Shown here in pieces: positions 175 through 24,043 of a stretch of DNA of 25,647 nt (position 1 is its first letter; every line of letters starts with the position of its first letter). The notes below the pieces were generated by a model, which saw only the letters and a list, made by a program, of their open reading frames with translations, was not told the DNA's origin and made no database searches. Position numbers and translations under genes: made by a program. The DNA comes from Kiritimatiellota bacterium (GTDB lineage Bacteria; Verrucomicrobiota; Kiritimatiellia; Kiritimatiellales; Tichowtungiaceae): NCBI GenBank assembly GCA_014381785.1, contig JACNKZ010000074.1:1-25647 (forward strand), in the 5' to 3' direction.

Positions 175-283
175 TTCCAAACATTGGAACCGGCGCGGTC
201 ACCGCCCGCACCTACAGATCTGTAGCCACGCACGACGGGCGCGGTTGTCCTGCCCTTGGAAAAAATTCTTCCAAACTTTGGAA
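175..283. repeat. Iterated palindrome copies (TTCCAA-N3-TTGGAA) in the comM-upstream spacer
   Basis: Perfect copies at 175-189 (ACA core) and 269-283 (ACT). A degenerate copy GTCCTGCCCTTGGAA lies at 247-261. The 14-bp palindrome CTACAGATCTGTAG at 212-225 sits between them. Confidence 0.9.
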
Positions 284-405
284 GCGAGGGGTAGGGCGAC
301 GCCTCCGGCGGAGCCGCCTTTTCAGTTCTGCGGCTCACCGGGACGGTTCGCCCCACCTTAAGAATGCGCCTTGAAAAAGGGAGGGTTTGGCTCTACAAAG
401 CGGGC

Positions 406-597
406 ATGACAACGGTAAAAGAAATCGAAAAAGCGGTTGAGCATCTTCCGCCCAAAGATTTGAACCAGTTCCGCAACTGGTTCGAGGCATTTGAGGCCGC
501 CGCATGGGATCGGCAGTTGGAGGCTGATGCCCGTAGTGGACGCCTTGACCTTCTGGCGAATGAAGCCCGCGAAGAATACAGACGAGTAATTCGCTGA
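406..597 (+). CDS. Small conserved hypothetical protein, weakly antitoxin-like (addiction-module-component style), no toxin partner nearby
   Basis: ORF 364..597. The internal ATG at 406 gives MTTVKEIEKAVEHLPPKDLNQFRNWFEAFEAAAWDRQLEADARSGRLDLLANEAREEYR. The pattern LPxxxxxxFRxWFxxF..WDxQxExD..xGxLD recalls small antitoxin-like proteins. The functional call is from memory only. Confidence 0.4.
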   Translation: MTTVKEIEKAVEHLPPKDLNQFRNWFEAFEAAAWDRQLEADARSGRLDLLANEAREEYRRVIR

Positions 598-610
598 TTG
601 ATATTCACTT

Positions 611-677
611 TTCCAACCCTTGGAAACATCCGCGTTGATCCATGTTCATCCGCGGTTAAATCTTCCGATCATTGGAA
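611..677. repeat. Iterated palindrome copies at the convergent junction of the small ORF and the helicase
   Basis: 611-625 TTCCAACCCTTGGAA (perfect) and 663-677 TTCCGATCATTGGAA (1 mismatch). Centres are 52 bp apart. Confidence 0.9.
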
Positions 678-705: not shown

Positions 706-2637
706 CTAAAAAAATCCACGGTCTTTTTGCAAGAGATGCGGAGGGATTTCGTTGATGAAGCGGGAGGGCTCTAAAAAGATGATGCCGCCGTCGCGCTGGC
801 GGCGCACCTCGGGGCTGCACAGGAAGAGGTGGTCTTCGGCGCGGGTGACGGCGACGTAGAACAGCCGTCGCTCTTCGGAATCCCCCGCCTCTTCGATCGA
901 TTTGGTGCCCGGGAACATGCTCTCACACAGGAAGAGCACAAAGACCGCCTTGAACTCCAGTCCTTTGGCCTGATGAATGGTGCTGAGGCGCAGGGAGTCG
1001 GCCGGATCGGTGTCGGTTCGTGTGTCGCCCTCCGCATCGAGGTTCGAGAGCAGGGCGATTTCGCTGAGAAACGCCTCGGTGGTTTCAAATTTGGTGGTGA
1101 AGTCGATCAGTCCATCGAGATCTTCGGCGCGGTATTTGGAGTTATCAAAATTTTCTACCATGAACTCGTTGTAGAACGCCTTATTGAAACGGTAGACGAT
1201 TTCGCCGGGGTCGGCGTCGAGGGTTTCTTCGCGGTAAGCCAGAAAGACCGGCTCGATTTTTTTCCATTCGTCGCGCGCGGCGGCGGGCAGGGCGGTTTCA
1301 ACCTGCATACAGACCTCTTTGCGCTGCAGATTCACCCGTCCGCCGAGGGTTCGGAAAATTTTGAGCGAGGTCTTTTTTCCAACCTTTGGAAAAAGTTCCA
1401 ACAGACGGGTGAAGGCCAGCTCGTCGCCGGGGTTGACCAGGATCCGCAGTACGGTGCAGACGTCTTTGATGTGCGCCTGCTCGAAGAACCGGACGCCGGA
1501 GGTGACGATGTAGGGCATGGACGCGCGCGCCAGCTCCATCTGCAGTTCCATGGCGTGGAAGTGGGAGCGGTAGAGCACGCACATGTCCGAAGGGGAAATC
1601 CCTTCGCGGCGGAGCATCTGTACCTTTTCGATAATGTAGCGCGCCTGCGCACTGCCGTCGCGCAGTCCGGCGAGGACGGGATAGGCCCCTTCCGGACGGA
1701 CGGCTTTGAGTTCTTTCTGGAACTGGTCGGGATTGCCGGCAATCGCCGCGTTGGCGACCTCGAGGATTTCCGGCGTGGAGCGATAGTTGATCTGCAGCTT
1801 AAATTCGCGTGTGCCGGGATAGTGGCGTCCGAAGTCGAGAAAGTTGCGGAAGTCGGCGCCGCGCCACGAGTAGATGCTCTGGAAGTCGTCCCCCACCACC
1901 ATGATGTTCTGATGGACCTTGGCGAGCAGCTCCACCATGCGCGCCTGAATGGCGTTGGTGTCCTGATACTCATCGACAAGGATGTATTGAAACTCCTCCT
2001 GATAGAACCGCAGGATCTGTTCGTTTTGTTCGAGCAGCTTCAGGGCGTAGGAAAGGAGATCGTCGAAGTCCATCGCGTTCTGCTCTTTCTTGCGCTTCTG
2101 ATAGAGGTCGTGCACGCGGATGACATCTTCGAAGTCCACCTCGGTGTGTTCGAAGCGCTCAGCCAGCCCGTCGGCCAGATCGCCCATCTGTCCGCCGATG
2201 ACGCCGAAGATGCTTTGCAGCACCTGCGGCTTGGGAAAATGCTTTTTATCCATCTTCAGGTCGTCCGCGCAGGATCCGAGCAGCTTTTTGGAGTCGTCGG
2301 CGTCGAGGATGGCGAAGTTGTTGTCGAAGCCGACGCGCGGCGCGTGCGAGCGCAGGATGCGGTTGGCGAAGCGGTGGAATGTGCCGCTATAGCCGCTGGT
2401 GAAGGGGCGGTTGACCAGCCGTTCCGCGCGCTCAAGCATTTCGCCGGCGGCTTTGTTCGTGAAGGTCAGCAGTAGCATGTTGCGCGGGTCGAGCCCGCGC
2501 TCTTTCACCAGCCAGGCCAGACGATAGACCAGCGTGCGGGTTTTACCGGTTCCGGCCGCGGCAATGACGAGCGCCGGCCCGTCCGGAGCGGTGACGGCGG
2601 CGTACTGCTCTTCGTTGAGTTCCTTTTTGAAATTCAT
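706..2637 (-). CDS. UvrD/PcrA/Rep-family superfamily 1 ATP-dependent DNA helicase (643 aa)
   Basis: Motif I AAAGTGKT, motif II VDEYQDTN, motif III VGDDFQSIYSWRGA, NYRS, TIHQAKGLEF and YVAVTRAEDHL are all present in canonical order. Confidence 0.93.
   Translation of the reverse strand: MNFKKELNEEQYAAVTAPDGPALVIAAAGTGKTRTLVYRLAWLVKERGLDPRNMLLLTFTNKAAGEMLERAERLVNRPFTSGYSGTFHRFANRILRSHAPRVGFDNNFAILDADDSKKLLGSCADDLKMDKKHFPKPQVLQSIFGVIGGQMGDLADGLAERFEHTEVDFEDVIRVHDLYQKRKKEQNAMDFDDLLSYALKLLEQNEQILRFYQEEFQYILVDEYQDTNAIQARMVELLAKVHQNIMVVGDDFQSIYSWRGADFRNFLDFGRHYPGTREFKLQINYRSTPEILEVANAAIAGNPDQFQKELKAVRPEGAYPVLAGLRDGSAQARYIIEKVQMLRREGISPSDMCVLYRSHFHAMELQMELARASMPYIVTSGVRFFEQAHIKDVCTVLRILVNPGDELAFTRLLELFPKVGKKTSLKIFRTLGGRVNLQRKEVCMQVETALPAAARDEWKKIEPVFLAYREETLDADPGEIVYRFNKAFYNEFMVENFDNSKYRAEDLDGLIDFTTKFETTEAFLSEIALLSNLDAEGDTRTDTDPADSLRLSTIHQAKGLEFKAVFVLFLCESMFPGTKSIEEAGDSEERRLFYVAVTRAEDHLFLCSPEVRRQRDGGIIFLEPSRFINEIPPHLLQKDRGFF
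1377..1391. repeat. Iterated palindrome copy inside the helicase CDS
   Basis: TTTTTTCCAACCTTTGGAAAAAG, perfect with T/A-run flanks. Translated on the minus strand as FPKVGKK. Confidence 0.9.
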
Positions 2638-3364: not shown

Positions 3365-3462
3365 TTCCAATGCTTGGAAAAAAGACTGAGGCTAAAAATT
3401 TTTGAGCACCTGTTTTTCCAATGTTTGGAAGCAGGGATCGGTTATTTTTCCAAACATTGGAA
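3365..3462. repeat. Cluster of three perfect iterated palindromes between the ArsR-like and yihY 3' ends
   Basis: 3365-3379 (TGC), 3416-3430 (TGT), 3448-3462 (ACA). Centre spacings are 51 and 32 bp. Confidence 0.95.
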
Positions 3463-9546: not shown

Positions 9547-10374
9547 TTAAGCTCTTCTGCATTTGAAAATAACAACCACCGGAATGCGGGCGAGCTGGTC
9601 GTACAGCGCGCGCCAGCCTTTGCTGTCGTAGGGAACCTTTTCGAGGATCTCCTTTTTGCTCATGTCGGGGATCGGCAGGGGGGCGGGTTCGAGCAGTCGC
9701 TCAATGACCAATCCGGCGTTATATATCCATTCGGCAATCTGTGAAATCGGCCAGGTTTGCGCGGCGTTCATGGTTTTGTCGTCCATCGACATGCGCACAT
9801 CGGCTTCGAGTTGAAAATAGTCGGGCAGGAAGACGCCGTCCTCCCCGTCGCCGATGTCGAGCCATTCTCCGGCGTAGAGCGGATGGCCGGTGGTCAGCAA
9901 CAGCGTGCCGCCGAGCTTGAGCATTGCGGCGCAGTCGGAGATCACCTTGGCCGGGTCGGCTGAGAACGGTAATGCGTAAGAGGAATGAATGAGGTCGAAG
10001 GAAGCAGGCTCCCACGCTCCCTCTTGCAATGAGTCCATCGAAACGCAGCGGAAATCGACGTTGACGTTTTCTTTGGCGGCCAGCTTGCGGCCGTGCGCGA
10101 GCTGTTCTTCAGAAATATCGATGGCGACACACTGCGCACCCTGCTTGGCCAGAAAGATGGAGTTCTGCCCCGCGCCGCAGCCGATTTCCAAACATTGGAA
10201 AATTCCGCCGGAATTTTTTCCAATGTTTGGAAGGAGTTCAAGCTGCGAATCGCCGGGCAGGAGCGGGCCGTAGTGGAAGTCGCTGGTGGAGATGCGGGTC
10301 TCTTTCTGATAGAGCTCCGCGATGTCGTTCCAGTAGCGCGCGCTGCTTGCGTCGGTGTTGCCATTAAATTGCAT
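9547..10374 (-). CDS. Class I SAM-dependent methyltransferase
   Basis: Motif I LEIGCGAGQN and the Methyltransf_11/25-like layout. Start MQFNGNTD at 10374. The ORF-track extension to 10533 reads through repeat DNA (SNVWK). Confidence 0.82.
   Translation of the reverse strand: MQFNGNTDASSARYWNDIAELYQKETRISTSDFHYGPLLPGDSQLELLPNIGKNSGGIFQCLEIGCGAGQNSIFLAKQGAQCVAIDISEEQLAHGRKLAAKENVNVDFRCVSMDSLQEGAWEPASFDLIHSSYALPFSADPAKVISDCAAMLKLGGTLLLTTGHPLYAGEWLDIGDGEDGVFLPDYFQLEADVRMSMDDKTMNAAQTWPISQIAEWIYNAGLVIERLLEPAPLPIPDMSKKEILEKVPYDSKGWRALYDQLARIPVVVIFKCRRA
10186..10232. repeat. 47-bp near-perfect composite palindrome (two iterated palindromes plus palindromic spacer) inside the methyltransferase CDS
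   Basis: TTCCAAACATTGGAA-AATTCCGCCGGAATTTT-TTCCAATGTTTGGAA, translated as PNIGKNSGGIFQCLE. Confidence 0.95.
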
Positions 10375-10384
10375 GTGGAAAATT

Positions 10385-10470
10385 TTCCAGACATTGGAAC
10401 CGGAAAGCAAGCCGCAACACGGCCGGAGGAGGAAATCATCCAAACCCCAGGGCTTTTCCACCCGTTGGAG
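10385..10470. repeat. Iterated palindrome copies in the methyltransferase/ferritin divergent spacer
   Basis: 10385-10399 TTCCAGACATTGGAA (1 mismatch) lies 10 nt upstream of the methyltransferase ATG. 10456-10470 TTCCACCCGTTGGAG has 2 mismatches. Confidence 0.8.
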
Positions 10471-10553
10471 AATTTCCACCTGCCCGCCCAGGCGGCTTGC
10501 ATTTCCGGGCCGGCTGAGTAATGTCGGGAGCAACGCGAAAGAGGAGGTGCGCT

Positions 10554-11680: not shown

Positions 11681-12967
11681 TTATGAGTGATCGCGGGAGA
11701 CTAGCAGGAACACTTTATCCTGTCGACGGGCTTTGGCGGTAAGCGCCCCGGCAGCAGAGCGCAGCTCGCTACAGGGCAGGCGCAGGGTGACCATGTCTCC
11801 GGGGTTTGCCGCGTCGGTGGGTTCGCCGTCGACGCGCAGGTTTTCGGCGGTGAAGCGAACGGCGCCGGTGGTCGGGCCTTCAATCAGCAGCTGGTCGCCC
11901 GGCTGAATGGTGTGTTTGATCAGTTTGAACTCTGCCACGTTGAGGTTGGCAAAAAAGTTGGAGACGGTTCCGATCTGGTCGCGCGTTTCGGTCGCCTGAG
12001 AATGGGAGTTACCCGACCATTCGCCGAGCGGTTTGCCGCAGTAGTAGCCGCCGTGCCAGAAGCCGCGGTTGAAGACCTTACTCAGTTCGTCAATCCATGG
12101 CTGGCAAGTTGACGGATCGTAGGTTCCGGCGGCGAGGGCGTCGAGCGCTTCGCGGTAGACGCGGGTGGTGACGGCCACGTAGTCGGCGGTGCGCGCGCGG
12201 CCCTCCAGCTTGAGCACGGAAATGCCGGCGACGGAAATTTTGTCGAGGTATTGAACGGTGCAGAGATCTTTGGGTGACATGATGTGTTTGTTATCGATCA
12301 CCAGTTCTTCGCCGGTTTCCTCGTCGGTGACGCGGTAGCTGCGGCGGCAGGTCTGCAGGCAGGCGCCGCGGTTGGCGGAGTGGTTGTTCTGCGCCAGACT
12401 CATGTAGCACTTGCCGCTGACGGCGACGCACAGCGCGCCGTGGCCGAACAGTTCGAGCCGGACCGGTTCGCCGGACGGGCCGCGCACATCGTGCTCCTGC
12501 ACTTTTTTATAAATAGTGGAAATCTGGTCAAGCGTCAGCTCGCGTGCGAGCACGACGGTGTCGGCCCAGCGCGAATAAAATTCCAAGGCTTGGAAATTGG
12601 CGACATTGGCCTGCACGGAGATATGCACTTCGAGGCCGAGTGAGCGGGCGGTTTCGATGGTGGCGATGTCGGTGGCGATGACGGCGGAAACGCCGGCGGC
12701 TTTGGCGGACTCGCACAGCGACTGCATCTCTTGCATCTCGTTGTCGTAGATGATGGTGTTGAGCGCGAGGTAGCTTTTTACGCCCGCTTCGCGGCAGCGC
12801 GCGGCGATGCTCGGCAGATCGTCCGCGGTGAAATCGGCTGAGCGCGCCCGCATATTGAGTTTGCCGACGCCGAAATAGACCGAGTCCGCGCCGGCGTCAA
12901 TGGCGGCGCTCAGCGCCGCCTGCGATCCGGCCGGAGCCATCAGTTCAATTTTTGATTGGTTGCTCAT
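11681..12967 (-). CDS. Peptidase U32 family protein (collagenase-like / RlhA-TrhP-type)
   Basis: N-terminus MSNQSKIELMAPAGSQAALSAAIDAGADSVYFG is the canonical U32 start. The rest matches U32 layout (ELFGHGALCVAVSGKCYMS). The ORF-track extension to 13309 is rejected. Confidence 0.88.
   Translation of the reverse strand: MSNQSKIELMAPAGSQAALSAAIDAGADSVYFGVGKLNMRARSADFTADDLPSIAARCREAGVKSYLALNTIIYDNEMQEMQSLCESAKAAGVSAVIATDIATIETARSLGLEVHISVQANVANFQALEFYSRWADTVVLARELTLDQISTIYKKVQEHDVRGPSGEPVRLELFGHGALCVAVSGKCYMSLAQNNHSANRGACLQTCRRSYRVTDEETGEELVIDNKHIMSPKDLCTVQYLDKISVAGISVLKLEGRARTADYVAVTTRVYREALDALAAGTYDPSTCQPWIDELSKVFNRGFWHGGYYCGKPLGEWSGNSHSQATETRDQIGTVSNFFANLNVAEFKLIKHTIQPGDQLLIEGPTTGAVRFTAENLRVDGEPTDAANPGDMVTLRLPCSELRSAAGALTAKARRQDKVFLLVSRDHS
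12581..12595. repeat. Iterated palindrome copy inside the U32 peptidase CDS
   Basis: AAAATTCCAAGGCTTGGAAATT, perfect. Translated as FQALE. Confidence 0.85.
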
Positions 12968-12981
12968 TACAGTTCCACAGT

Positions 12982-12996
12982 TTCCAATGTTTGGAT
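12982..12996. repeat. Iterated palindrome copy centred in the 42-bp U32/tspO divergent spacer
   Basis: TTCCAATGTTTGGAT (1 mismatch). It lies 14 nt from the U32 ATG and 13 nt from the tspO ATG. Confidence 0.85.
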
Positions 12997-18004: not shown

Positions 18005-18050
18005 TTCCAAAGGTTGGAAGATTTTTACCGTAAAGTTTCGAGCCTTGGAA
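18005..18050. repeat. Iterated palindrome pair between thiE and the S41 peptidase gene
   Basis: 18005-18019 TTCCAAAGGTTGGAA (perfect) lies 12 nt upstream of the S41 ATG. 18036-18050 TTTCGAGCCTTGGAA has 2 mismatches. Centres are 31 bp apart. Confidence 0.85.
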
Positions 18051-18081
18051 GCCATAGCATGGCGGCAAGCGGGTTTTTCTG

Positions 18082-18821: not shown

Positions 18822-18888
18822 AAAGTGGGACAGGCATCCTGCCTGTCTACCCATGCACTGCAGACAGGCAGGATGCCTGTCCCACTTT
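18822..18888. repeat. Perfect 27-bp inverted repeat with 13-nt loop (GC-rich REP-like element) between thiH and thiE
   Basis: AAAGTGGGACAGGCATCCTGCCTGTCT (18822-18848) and AGACAGGCAGGATGCCTGTCCCACTTT (18862-18888). Each arm also contains its own palindrome, GACAGGCA-N3-TGCCTGTC. The right arm overlaps the thiH stop codon. Confidence 0.9.
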
Positions 18889-20794: not shown

Positions 20795-20989
20795 TCAGCC
20801 TCCTCCCACAAAGGTGAGCACTTCGACGCTGTCGCCGTCGCTGAATTTAAAATTGTTCCAATCCTTGGAAAAAACGAGATCGCCGTTGACGGTGATCGCG
20901 GTGTATTCGGGGTTGGCGCCGAGTTCGGAGAGCAGGGCGGCGATGGTGCCGGCGTGTTCGTGGCTTTCGCCGTTAACTGTCAGATTCAT
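20795..20989 (-). CDS. thiS: Sulfur-carrier protein ThiS
   Basis: 64 aa, [11 protein letters not shown]..., ends in GG (FVGGG). AGGAGA SD. First gene after the TPP riboswitch. Confidence 0.88.
20856..20870. repeat. Iterated palindrome copy inside thiS
   Basis: TTCCAATCCTTGGAAAAAA, perfect. Translated on the minus strand as SKDWN. Confidence 0.85.
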
Positions 20990-21580: not shown

Positions 21581-21652
21581 AAAGTGGAGCAGACACTCCT
21601 GTCTGCTCATCCCTGCGAGCCAGAAAAGGGCAGACAGGAGCGTCTGCCCCAC
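21581..21652. repeat. Inverted pair of GC-rich REP-like hairpins, same family as 18822-18888
   Basis: AAAGTGGAGCAGACActccTGTCTGCTC (21581-21608) and GGGCAGACaggagcGTCTGCCCCAC (21628-21652). The AAAGTGG/CCCAC flanks and CAGAC/GTCTG stems parallel the thiH-thiE element. Confidence 0.7.
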
Positions 21653-23880: not shown

Positions 23881-24043
23881 TTCCAAGGGTTGGGCTCTGC
23901 GTTGCCAGAGGGCGATGCAGGTCAAGAAAAGAAAAGGAGCCGCCATGCTATGGCTTCCAATGTCTGGAAAAAATGTGCTAGCTTCGCTCCGGATTTTTCC
24001 AAGGGCTGGAAAAAAAGGTATGAAATTTTTCCAATGGTTGGAA
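23881..24043. repeat. Array of four iterated palindromes in the repeat-protein/nadB divergent spacer
   Basis: 23881-23895 TTCCAAGGGTTGGGC (2 mismatches). 23955-23969 TTCCAATGTCTGGAA (1). 23997-24011 TTCCAAGGGCTGGAA (1). 24029-24043 TTCCAATGGTTGGAA (perfect, 11 nt before the nadB ATG). Confidence 0.9.

Follow-up and report, generated by a model that had tools for sequence, protein, structure and literature searches.

The DNA analysed here, called the window below, is a stretch of 25,647 nt that makes up one whole contig (JACNKZ010000074.1) of a Kiritimatiellota genome assembly (GCA_014381785.1; class Kiritimatiellia, family Tichowtungiaceae; 2.2 Mb, 88 contigs, 54.7% G+C, 98% complete), referred to as G000. 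Its minus strand carries an intact gene for a class I S-adenosylmethionine (SAM)-dependent methyltransferase, recognized by its Pfam matches, and inside the reading frame, directly before the codons for SAM-binding motif I, stands a 47-bp inverted repeat. The repeat is a doublet of a 15-bp palindromic word, TTCCAA-N3-TTGGAA (the box), which recurs hundreds of times in the genome, in coding and intergenic DNA, in all reading frames and mostly with neighbouring copies set whole turns of the DNA helix apart.

The methyltransferase gene lies in an open reading frame (ORF) of 9547..10533, and its real start is the ATG at 10374; its counterpart in the assembly is found at 9550-10374 of contig C26. 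The Methyltransf_11 (E = 1.5e-18) and Methyltransf_25 matches both begin at residue 62 of the protein. Homologues numbered 390, mostly metagenome-assembled genomes (MAGs) of Kiritimatiellales, with the best named one from Tichowtungia aerotolerans. Residues L47, L48, P49 and the pair L62-E63 are invariant across 30 aligned orthologues, while the segment between them is the main indel hotspot and the most variable part of the protein. In an AlphaFold2 model (mean predicted local distance difference test score 64, predicted template modelling score 0.70), residues 44-59 form coil and residues 60-64 (CLEIG) form strand beta-1. The box-encoded residues are thus predicted to occupy a permissive loop, with only the last two codons of the second box falling within the conserved fold. 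The orthologues have a second indel hotspot (alignment columns 200-245, after SMDSL, at about residue 116), where inserts of 10-45 residues, for example 'DLQHPPRPAGTPPQEG...PLHGRGGQSEAMAG', look like another translated repeat family; such inserts are absent from the gene in the window.

The letters of the doublet read TTCCAAACATTGGAA-AATTCCGCCGGAATTTT-TTCCAATGTTTGGAA, which is two exact boxes of the form TTCCAA-NSN-TTGGAA with the centres ACA and TGT (Table 1). An inverted-repeat finder returned two arms of 17 nt (10186-10202 and 10216-10232) that are 100% complementary and separated by 13 nt. Further, the spacer holds a 15-nt palindrome of its own, AATTCCG-C-CGGAATT (10201-10215), whose centre is displaced by 1 nt from that of the outer palindrome. 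When single-stranded, the 47-mer pairs with itself over about 21 bp and leaves a 2-nt bulge, at a predicted energy of -25.4 kcal/mol as RNA (z = -4.9) and -18.9 kcal/mol as DNA (z = -6.3). The first-pass annotation of this DNA had described a near-perfect palindrome in frame before motif I, with a palindromic spacer, and the letters and the repeat finder agree with both descriptions; the bulge makes 'near-perfect' an apt term. On the minus strand the doublet is translated as L48-P-N-I-G-K-N-S-G-G-I-F-Q-C-L-E63, followed by IGCGAG. The first half of box 1 shares bases with the invariant Leu-Pro codons, and box 2 ends with the codons of the invariant Leu-Glu pair, with which motif I (LEIGCGAG, strand beta-1) begins.

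Table 1. The methyltransferase gene, its doublet and other boxes in the window
Feature	Position	Strand	Remarks
Four intergenic boxes	175-677		175-189, 269-283, 611-625, 663-677
Box within UvrD helicase gene	1377-1391	-	Reads FPKVGK
Three boxes	3365-3462		3365-3379, 3416-3430, 3448-3462; 5' end of BrkB/YihY-family gene
Class I SAM-dependent methyltransferase gene, intact	9547-10374	-	275 aa, stop included; Pfam
47-bp doublet (two boxes and spacer)	10186-10232		32 bp between box starts, three helical turns
Box 2 (mRNA order), TTCCAATGTTTGGAA	10186-10200	-	Frame 0, F59-Q-C-L-E63
Spacer, 17 nt	10201-10217		Encodes N54-S-G-G-I58, five residues absent from box-free orthologues
Box 1 (mRNA order), TTCCAAACATTGGAA	10218-10232	-	Frame +1, (L48)P-N-I-G-K53
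Box with one mismatch, TTCCAGACATTGGAA	10385-10399		10 nt upstream of methyltransferase start codon
Box within U32 peptidase gene	12581-12595	-	Reads FQALE
Second U32 peptidase box, one mismatch	12982-12996		Reads YPNIGN
Box near 5' end of S41 peptidase ORF	18005-18019	-	Reads FQPLE
Box within thiS	20856-20870	-	Third frame, FSKDWN
Four-box array	23881-24043		Starts 23881, 23955, 23997, 24029; spacings 74, 42, 32 bp

The word TTCCAA-N3-TTGGAA is present in G000 in 597 exact copies, with 383 further copies that carry one arm mismatch and 289 that carry two, as against 1, 20 and 132 copies of a backwards control word; base composition alone would give about 0.1 exact copies. In a logo of the 597 copies the 12 arm bases are fixed, the centre is C or G in about 98%, and T-runs and A-runs of 2-4 bases form a collar; no conservation is seen outside these positions. 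The consensus is (TT)TTCCAA-N-S-N-TTGGAA(AA), that is, two 6-bp half-sites about 9 bp apart from centre to centre. The split between coding and intergenic copies is approximate, being based on home-made ORF scoring and rough gene calls, and places 264 of the 597 exact boxes (about 44%) between genes or across a gene end and about 56% in coding DNA. Coding boxes are read in all three frames (171, 94 and 68 as FQxLE, PxxGK and SxxWK, respectively) and are spread evenly along genes. The frame list of the first-pass annotation was right on this point, with FQALE for the U32 peptidase gene, FQCLE for the methyltransferase, FPKVGK in UvrD and LPNIGK in the methyltransferase, and FSKDWN in ThiS; the ThiH member of its PxxGK list is FPMSEK, a degenerate box. 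With its exact 6+6 arms, central C/G and helical-turn spacing, the methyltransferase doublet belongs to this family.

The spacing between successive boxes falls into classes of 22 bp (35 pairs), 31-32 bp (149) and 41-42 bp (64), then 52-53, 62-63, 72-74 and 83-84 bp. For box spacings of 16-120 bp, 133 of 147 in coding DNA and 199 of 234 in intergenic DNA deviate from a multiple of 10.5 bp by no more than 1.5 bp, where about 29% would do so by chance, and the vector strength of the spacings is at its maximum at a period of 10.3-10.5 bp. The commonest neighbour spacing is 31-32 bp, the class to which the 32 bp of the doublet belongs. Spacers of this class have no sequence in common; it is the spacing that is kept and not a copied unit. 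In addition, the centre triplet of the box varies freely, and neighbouring boxes are not copies of each other. Steps of 31, 32 and 22 bp also occur in other families of the class, for example in arrays of 31-32-31 and 22-30-31-31-31-22.

Within the window, 23 matches to TTCCAAACATTGGAA with up to two mismatches were found, at 19 distinct positions, four of which scored on both strands; 0.03 were expected, and none of 100 shuffled sequences reached that number. The three boxes at the BrkB/YihY-family gene are spaced by 51 and 32 bp, and the second pair (3416-3462) is another 47-bp doublet. The S41 peptidase box has a degenerate partner 31 bp away (18036-18050), which adjoins a GCCATAGCATGGCGGC hairpin at 18051. 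The four-box array lies upstream of, or in an N-terminal extension of, a flavoprotein (SdhA/FrdA-like) ORF, whose FAD_binding_2 domain in Pfam begins only at residue 119. The window also contains two inverted repeats of a different family, at 18822-18888 and 21584-21652; one, between two genes, has 27-nt arms that are 100% complementary (AAAGTGGGACAGGCATCCTGCCTGTCT), and the other has 32-nt arms that are 81% complementary.

The distribution of the box is patchy. Counts among 12 congeners run from 1 (G002, 98% complete) and 16 (G010) up to 777 (G004), and a sister genus has genomes with 319, 76 and 60 boxes as against others with 3, 3 and 4. When the 17-mer TTTCCAANSNTTGGAAA was sought in 301 genomes of the phylum, more than one copy was found only in the class Kiritimatiellia (families f1, f2, f8, f9, f10, f11, f14, f16, f17 and f27; maximum 998), again patchily and even inside genera; other classes had zero or one copy, and the control word gave none. 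The single-contig congener G214 (3.9 Mb) contains 316 copies of the 17-mer. Doublets at 31-32 bp were met in at least 119 stretches of species-representative genomes; all matches listed are uncultured MAGs labelled Kiritimatiellia, Lentisphaerae or Verrucomicrobia, and no cultured host is among them. A literature search returned nothing on palindromes in Kiritimatiellota, and the 10 top-ranked of its 147 matches to the box letters were unrelated.

The history of the methyltransferase locus was followed in the DNA of congeners (G handles) and of metagenome orthologues, and it forms a graded series with 0, 1, 2 or 3 boxes. A short loop with no box, LLPPVPQRS-CLE or LLPPVENR-RCLE, is found in L019 (whose protein is 88% identical), in L021 and in the box-free congener G002, and an equally short one, LLPVAGGLRALE, in G010; both of these congeners are box-poor, and the contig of L021 has 8 boxes in 20.8 kb although none at this site. 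One perfect box at unchanged length (PNLGKIHALE, with a degenerate second box 17 bp off) is present in G004, and one box with three extra codons, PPVPQRSGFQCLE, in G003. Two boxes stand 20 bp apart in L022 and G011, where the second or both are degenerate, and 32 bp apart in this genome, G001, G008, G012, P0006, P0057 and P0010; three boxes at 32+42 bp occur in L020, whose extra 42-bp module contains a GC-rich hairpin. Aligned to G002, the present protein shows a gap of exactly five residues, inside NSGGI-F (15 nt). Frames +1 (box 1) and 0 (box 2) restrict in-frame spacings to values of 2 modulo 3, and 20, 32 and 32+42 bp are the allowed values nearest to 2, 3 and 3+4 helical turns, with the 17-bp remnant of G004 as the sole exception.

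The same loop hosts unrelated in-frame repeats: a GTAG-headed repetitive extragenic palindrome (REP) in G005 and G009, and an 'ARLRQSSG' element in G006 and G009. The REP-like hairpin, TGTAGGCCGGGTGCCCCCACCCGGC, occurs in the set of L012 (G005), L015 (G009) and L008 (G006) and is read EFCRPGAPTRR; among the same orthologues the second repeat encodes 'ARLRQSSGAARTxD'. Judged from these sequences, the loop serves generally as a landing or tolerance site for repeats.

The first-pass annotation had taken the conserved unit to be the nucleotide word and not a peptide, and the relatives bear this out, as do the three frames used genome-wide. Among orthologues whose DNA was read, IGK and FQxLE peptides go with boxes or their degenerate remnants, while box-free orthologues encode a different and shorter peptide (PPVPQRS-C, PPVENRR-C). 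Box-free orthologues with the same peptide at the same length, which that annotation had named as the case that would make the symmetry incidental, were looked for, and in the box-free orthologues read the peptide differs and is shorter. The idea that a conserved peptide merely happens to have palindromic coding DNA can draw on the invariant flanking LLP and LE, which do contribute half-site bases; however, the segment between them is the most variable part of the alignment and the 15-mer recurs genome-wide in all frames, and the comparison of orthologous DNA refutes the idea, leaving it almost no chance of being right.

The origin of the boxes was addressed by aligning the G000 proteins to about 90% of the G002 genome. 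Of 550 coding boxes with up to one mismatch, 314 lie within stretches alignable to G002, and these comprise 283 (90%) with no gap, 22 with a partial gap and 9 wholly inside a gap; identity to G002 is 43% inside the boxes as against 61% over the aligned stretches. Both results indicate that boxes have mostly been written into existing codons at less constrained positions. By its alignment, the methyltransferase doublet belongs to the minority with a length change. The 42-bp spacing class differs from this pattern in part, with 36 of its 66 spacers coming from three copied families of GC-rich odd palindromes. Two of these palindromes, GCAGGCTGAGCCTGCACCC (30 copies in G000) and GCCATAGCATGGCGGC (18 copies), with examples in the window at 18051-18066 and 23939-23954, often stand right after stop codons and are followed by a T-run, directly adjoining a box. 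They look like copied hairpins of a terminator- or REP-like kind and would account for about half of the 42-bp class; the hairpin in the extra module of L020 is of this copied kind.

The first-pass annotation had offered insertion in a tolerated loop as one of two explanations. The tolerated loop stands, given the predicted coil before beta-1, the indel hotspot and a doublet form five codons longer than the box-free form, whereas the insertion is less well borne out: no sign of a discrete 47-bp mobile insert is seen, the spacer varies, and intermediate states exist, from zero to three boxes and including a one-box form of unchanged length. The wider form of this idea is a selfish mobile repeat, akin to REPs, to paired REPs (REPINs), to miniature inverted-repeat transposable elements or to Rickettsia palindromic elements (RPEs), whose unit, either the 47 bp or a module of box and spacer, a transposase inserts in frame and the gene merely tolerates. 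A doublet of inverted palindromes does resemble a REPIN, and the added codons, the hairpin-plus-box module of some orthologues, the other repeats hosted by the loop in G005, G006 and G009, the copied spacers of the 42-bp class and the patchy occurrence among congeners all point the same way. We nevertheless consider a mobile repeat decidedly unlikely. Nine in ten alignable coding boxes add no residues, G004 has a perfect box at unchanged length, and flanks and 31-32 bp spacers are unrelated between copies, whose centre triplets are free to vary between neighbours. Further, the boxes have no GTAG head, the Y1 transposase (PF01797) is encoded in 21 of 21 relatives, box-rich or not, and thus also where a genome has only 1-4 boxes, and spacing classes one helical turn apart are left unexplained.

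Mostly substitutional boxes, in all frames and at less conserved positions, would also be expected of a motif that accumulates by tolerated substitution under molecular drive, as a DNA-uptake signal or through biased repair or conversion, with no role in chromatin. The motif is lineage-specific and patchy, it often flanks terminator-like hairpins just after stop codons, as pairs of DNA uptake sequences (DUS) do, and ComEC is present. Against this, ComEC (PF03772) does not discriminate, as 39 of 40 genomes encode it, box-rich and box-free alike, no receptor candidate was found, and known uptake signals are asymmetric and without helical phasing; a phase of 10.5 bp in both coding and intergenic DNA is not explained by a simple uptake bias. 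Drive of this kind is, on balance, an unlikely account.

The second explanation in the first-pass annotation was that the gene is regulated at this point through pausing, cleavage or recombination. In its fullest form, the methyltransferase would be regulated by an mRNA hairpin of about 21 bp, at which ribosomes pause or RNase III cuts, or by a DNA cruciform that serves as a site of recombination or pausing, and the predicted RNA fold is indeed strong and significant. Eight orthologous doublets, all at 32 bp, show box-to-box complementarity at 11-15 of 15 positions. It is complete (15/15) only in this genome and in G008, and 14/15 in G001, where both centres are flipped (TGT...ACA in place of ACA...TGT; peptide PLFGK...FQTLE) and pairing is kept. 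The double flip is apparently compensatory, and either arm-templated correction or selection on the hairpin could have produced it; templated correction of quasi-palindromes could keep arms alike without selection. The other orthologues pair at 11-14 positions, and only in the small clade formed by G000, G001 and G008 are the spacers related to one another. Genome-wide, the centre triplets of neighbouring exact pairs are complementary in 1 of the 34 pairs spaced by 31 bp and in 4 of the 14 spaced by 32 bp, against an expected 0.07. These figures give no general rule, and the long hairpin was rejected as the unit generally under selection. The methyltransferase is not singled out either, as its doublet has the commonest spacing in the genome, similar doublets stand in intergenic DNA and in unrelated genes, and the close orthologue L019 does without one. 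A regulatory device acting on this gene is therefore very unlikely, and the gene is most likely a passive carrier.

We favour a different explanation, in which the boxes are helically phased docking sites of a putative dimeric DNA-binding protein. Both their 6-3-6 symmetry and their whole-turn spacing are in keeping with a dimer that binds co-operatively along a single face of the helix. Half-sites of 6 bp whose centres lie about 9 bp apart match the layout of a dimer's binding site, and neighbours whole turns apart, mostly three, would be the pattern expected from many-site binding of this kind. Under such demands, boxes would be written into genes wherever the protein tolerates FQxLE, PxxGK or SxxWK peptides. 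In the methyltransferase, one half-site is present anyway in the codons of the invariant Leu-Pro (cTTCCa) and another in those of the invariant Leu-Glu (TTGGAA), and the variable coil before beta-1 may have been rebuilt, with five codons added, such that two full boxes stand 32 bp apart; the five-codon lengthening would then serve helical phase. In our judgement, docking of a phased dimer lies slightly on the probable side.

Several observations weigh against this explanation. No binding protein was found among the Y1 transposase, AsnC and ComEC families and 26 further candidates. The AsnC/Lrp family (PF01037) is single-copy almost everywhere, in box-free and box-rich genomes alike, which argues against an Lrp/AsnC reader, although a changed specificity is possible. 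The 26 candidates, likewise, do not follow the division between the six box-poor and the six box-rich genomes searched. With these results, Lrp in particular becomes a less likely reader, and a REP-associated tyrosine transposase (RAYT) a less likely agent. Hundreds of sites in coding DNA would be unusual for any regulator known to us. The copied hairpin families of the 42-bp class indicate that some boxes may spread within copied modules, and the boxes of G000, G001 and G008, which stay complementary through the flip in G001, hint at some hairpin-level process.

The 26 candidates were soluble, non-pilin proteins of up to 250 aa, chosen by eye from about 570 proteins of G000 that had no match in G002; 'no match' here means absent or weak by tblastn in about 90% of G002, and for some candidates the complete G002 genome does contain clear homologues. 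Candidates rejected as not tracking the boxes were YceH, CRP/FNR, DUF2089, Rex, DtxR, Rrf2, PadR and ORF6N proteins, two Xre and two ArsR proteins, a SatD-like protein, XPF/ERCC4-like, HNH and PD-(D/E)xK-like nucleases, VF530, a type IIG-like methyltransferase and several unknowns. Two proteins of G000 with no tblastn match in G002 may be recorded here: a 133-aa lysine/alanine-rich, histone-H1-like protein of low complexity (C57:41010-41411, minus strand), and a 216-aa ERCC4/XPF-like nuclease with a helix-hairpin-helix tail (C28:17787-18437, minus strand), which has no match in the six box-rich genomes either.

At this locus the competition between a genome-wide DNA signal and a protein sequence can be followed base by base. 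Half-sites are contributed by two invariant pairs of residues, and the steps in loop length (20, 32 and 32+42 bp) keep the frame and, mostly, the helical phase. If a protein does read the boxes, it would represent a new kind of nucleoid organizer in a poorly known branch of the Planctomycetes-Verrucomicrobia-Chlamydiae (PVC) group, and a rare case in which a chromatin-level constraint visibly shapes enzyme sequences. It is conceivable, if somewhat short of probable, that some Kiritimatiellia possess an undescribed chromosome-wide DNA-reading system, in which an abundant dimer that demands in-phase sites has recoded hundreds of housekeeping genes and lengthened the loop of this methyltransferase. 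For annotation, FQxLE, PxxGK and SxxWK peptides and small indels in Kiritimatiellia proteins are to be regarded as DNA-level features and not as functional protein motifs.

Several known systems share features with the boxes. REPs and REPINs are likewise short palindromes in hundreds of copies, patchy in distribution and often arranged as inverted doublets able to form a long hairpin. However, REPs are extragenic, are marked by a conserved GTAG head and are accompanied by a RAYT gene, whereas the boxes show only T/A runs around the arms in their logo, are largely coding without indels and do not follow the Y1 transposase. RPEs resemble the doublet as in-frame palindromic repeats in intact genes at tolerant surface loops, and the loop at 10186-10232 is similarly a permissive segment (coil, indel hotspot) of an otherwise intact protein. 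In comparison, an RPE is a mobile insert of conserved sequence and about 100-150 bp in length, while the box unit is 15-19 bp, its alignable coding copies mostly add no residues, and the methyltransferase locus adds five residues only (15 nt, with a variable spacer). The uptake signal sequences (USS) of Pasteurellaceae and the DUS of Neisseriaceae are also hyper-abundant, lineage-specific, placed in genes at tolerant positions and often found as inverted pairs near terminators; they are asymmetric and without helical phasing, and for the boxes no receptor or competence correlate was found.

Two further systems come nearer. The highly iterated palindrome HIP1 of cyanobacteria (GCGATCGC) is, like the box, short, over-represented by orders of magnitude, lineage-specific, found inside genes in every frame as well as outside them, and mainly substitutional, and its reader protein is similarly unsettled. 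It differs in word and host, being a contiguous 8-mer where the Kiritimatiellia box is an interrupted 6-3-6 palindrome with a T/A-run collar; strict 10.5-bp phasing, doublets and arrays are, to our knowledge, not a described feature of HIP1. The operator arrays of Lrp/AsnC proteins (the Ss-LrpB boxes, and Escherichia coli Lrp sites about three turns apart) have 15-bp sites of 6-3-6 form about 31-32 bp apart, bound co-operatively on one face of the DNA, as we infer for the boxes. Such operators are a handful of promoter sites, whereas boxes number from hundreds to more than 1000 per genome, with over half inside genes. By analogy, the geometry of the box system comes closest to an Lrp/AsnC operator array, whereas its abundance and its manner of being written into genes come closest to HIP1. 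The methyltransferase doublet is an instructive instance of this genome-wide iterated-palindrome phenomenon and not a separate mechanism.

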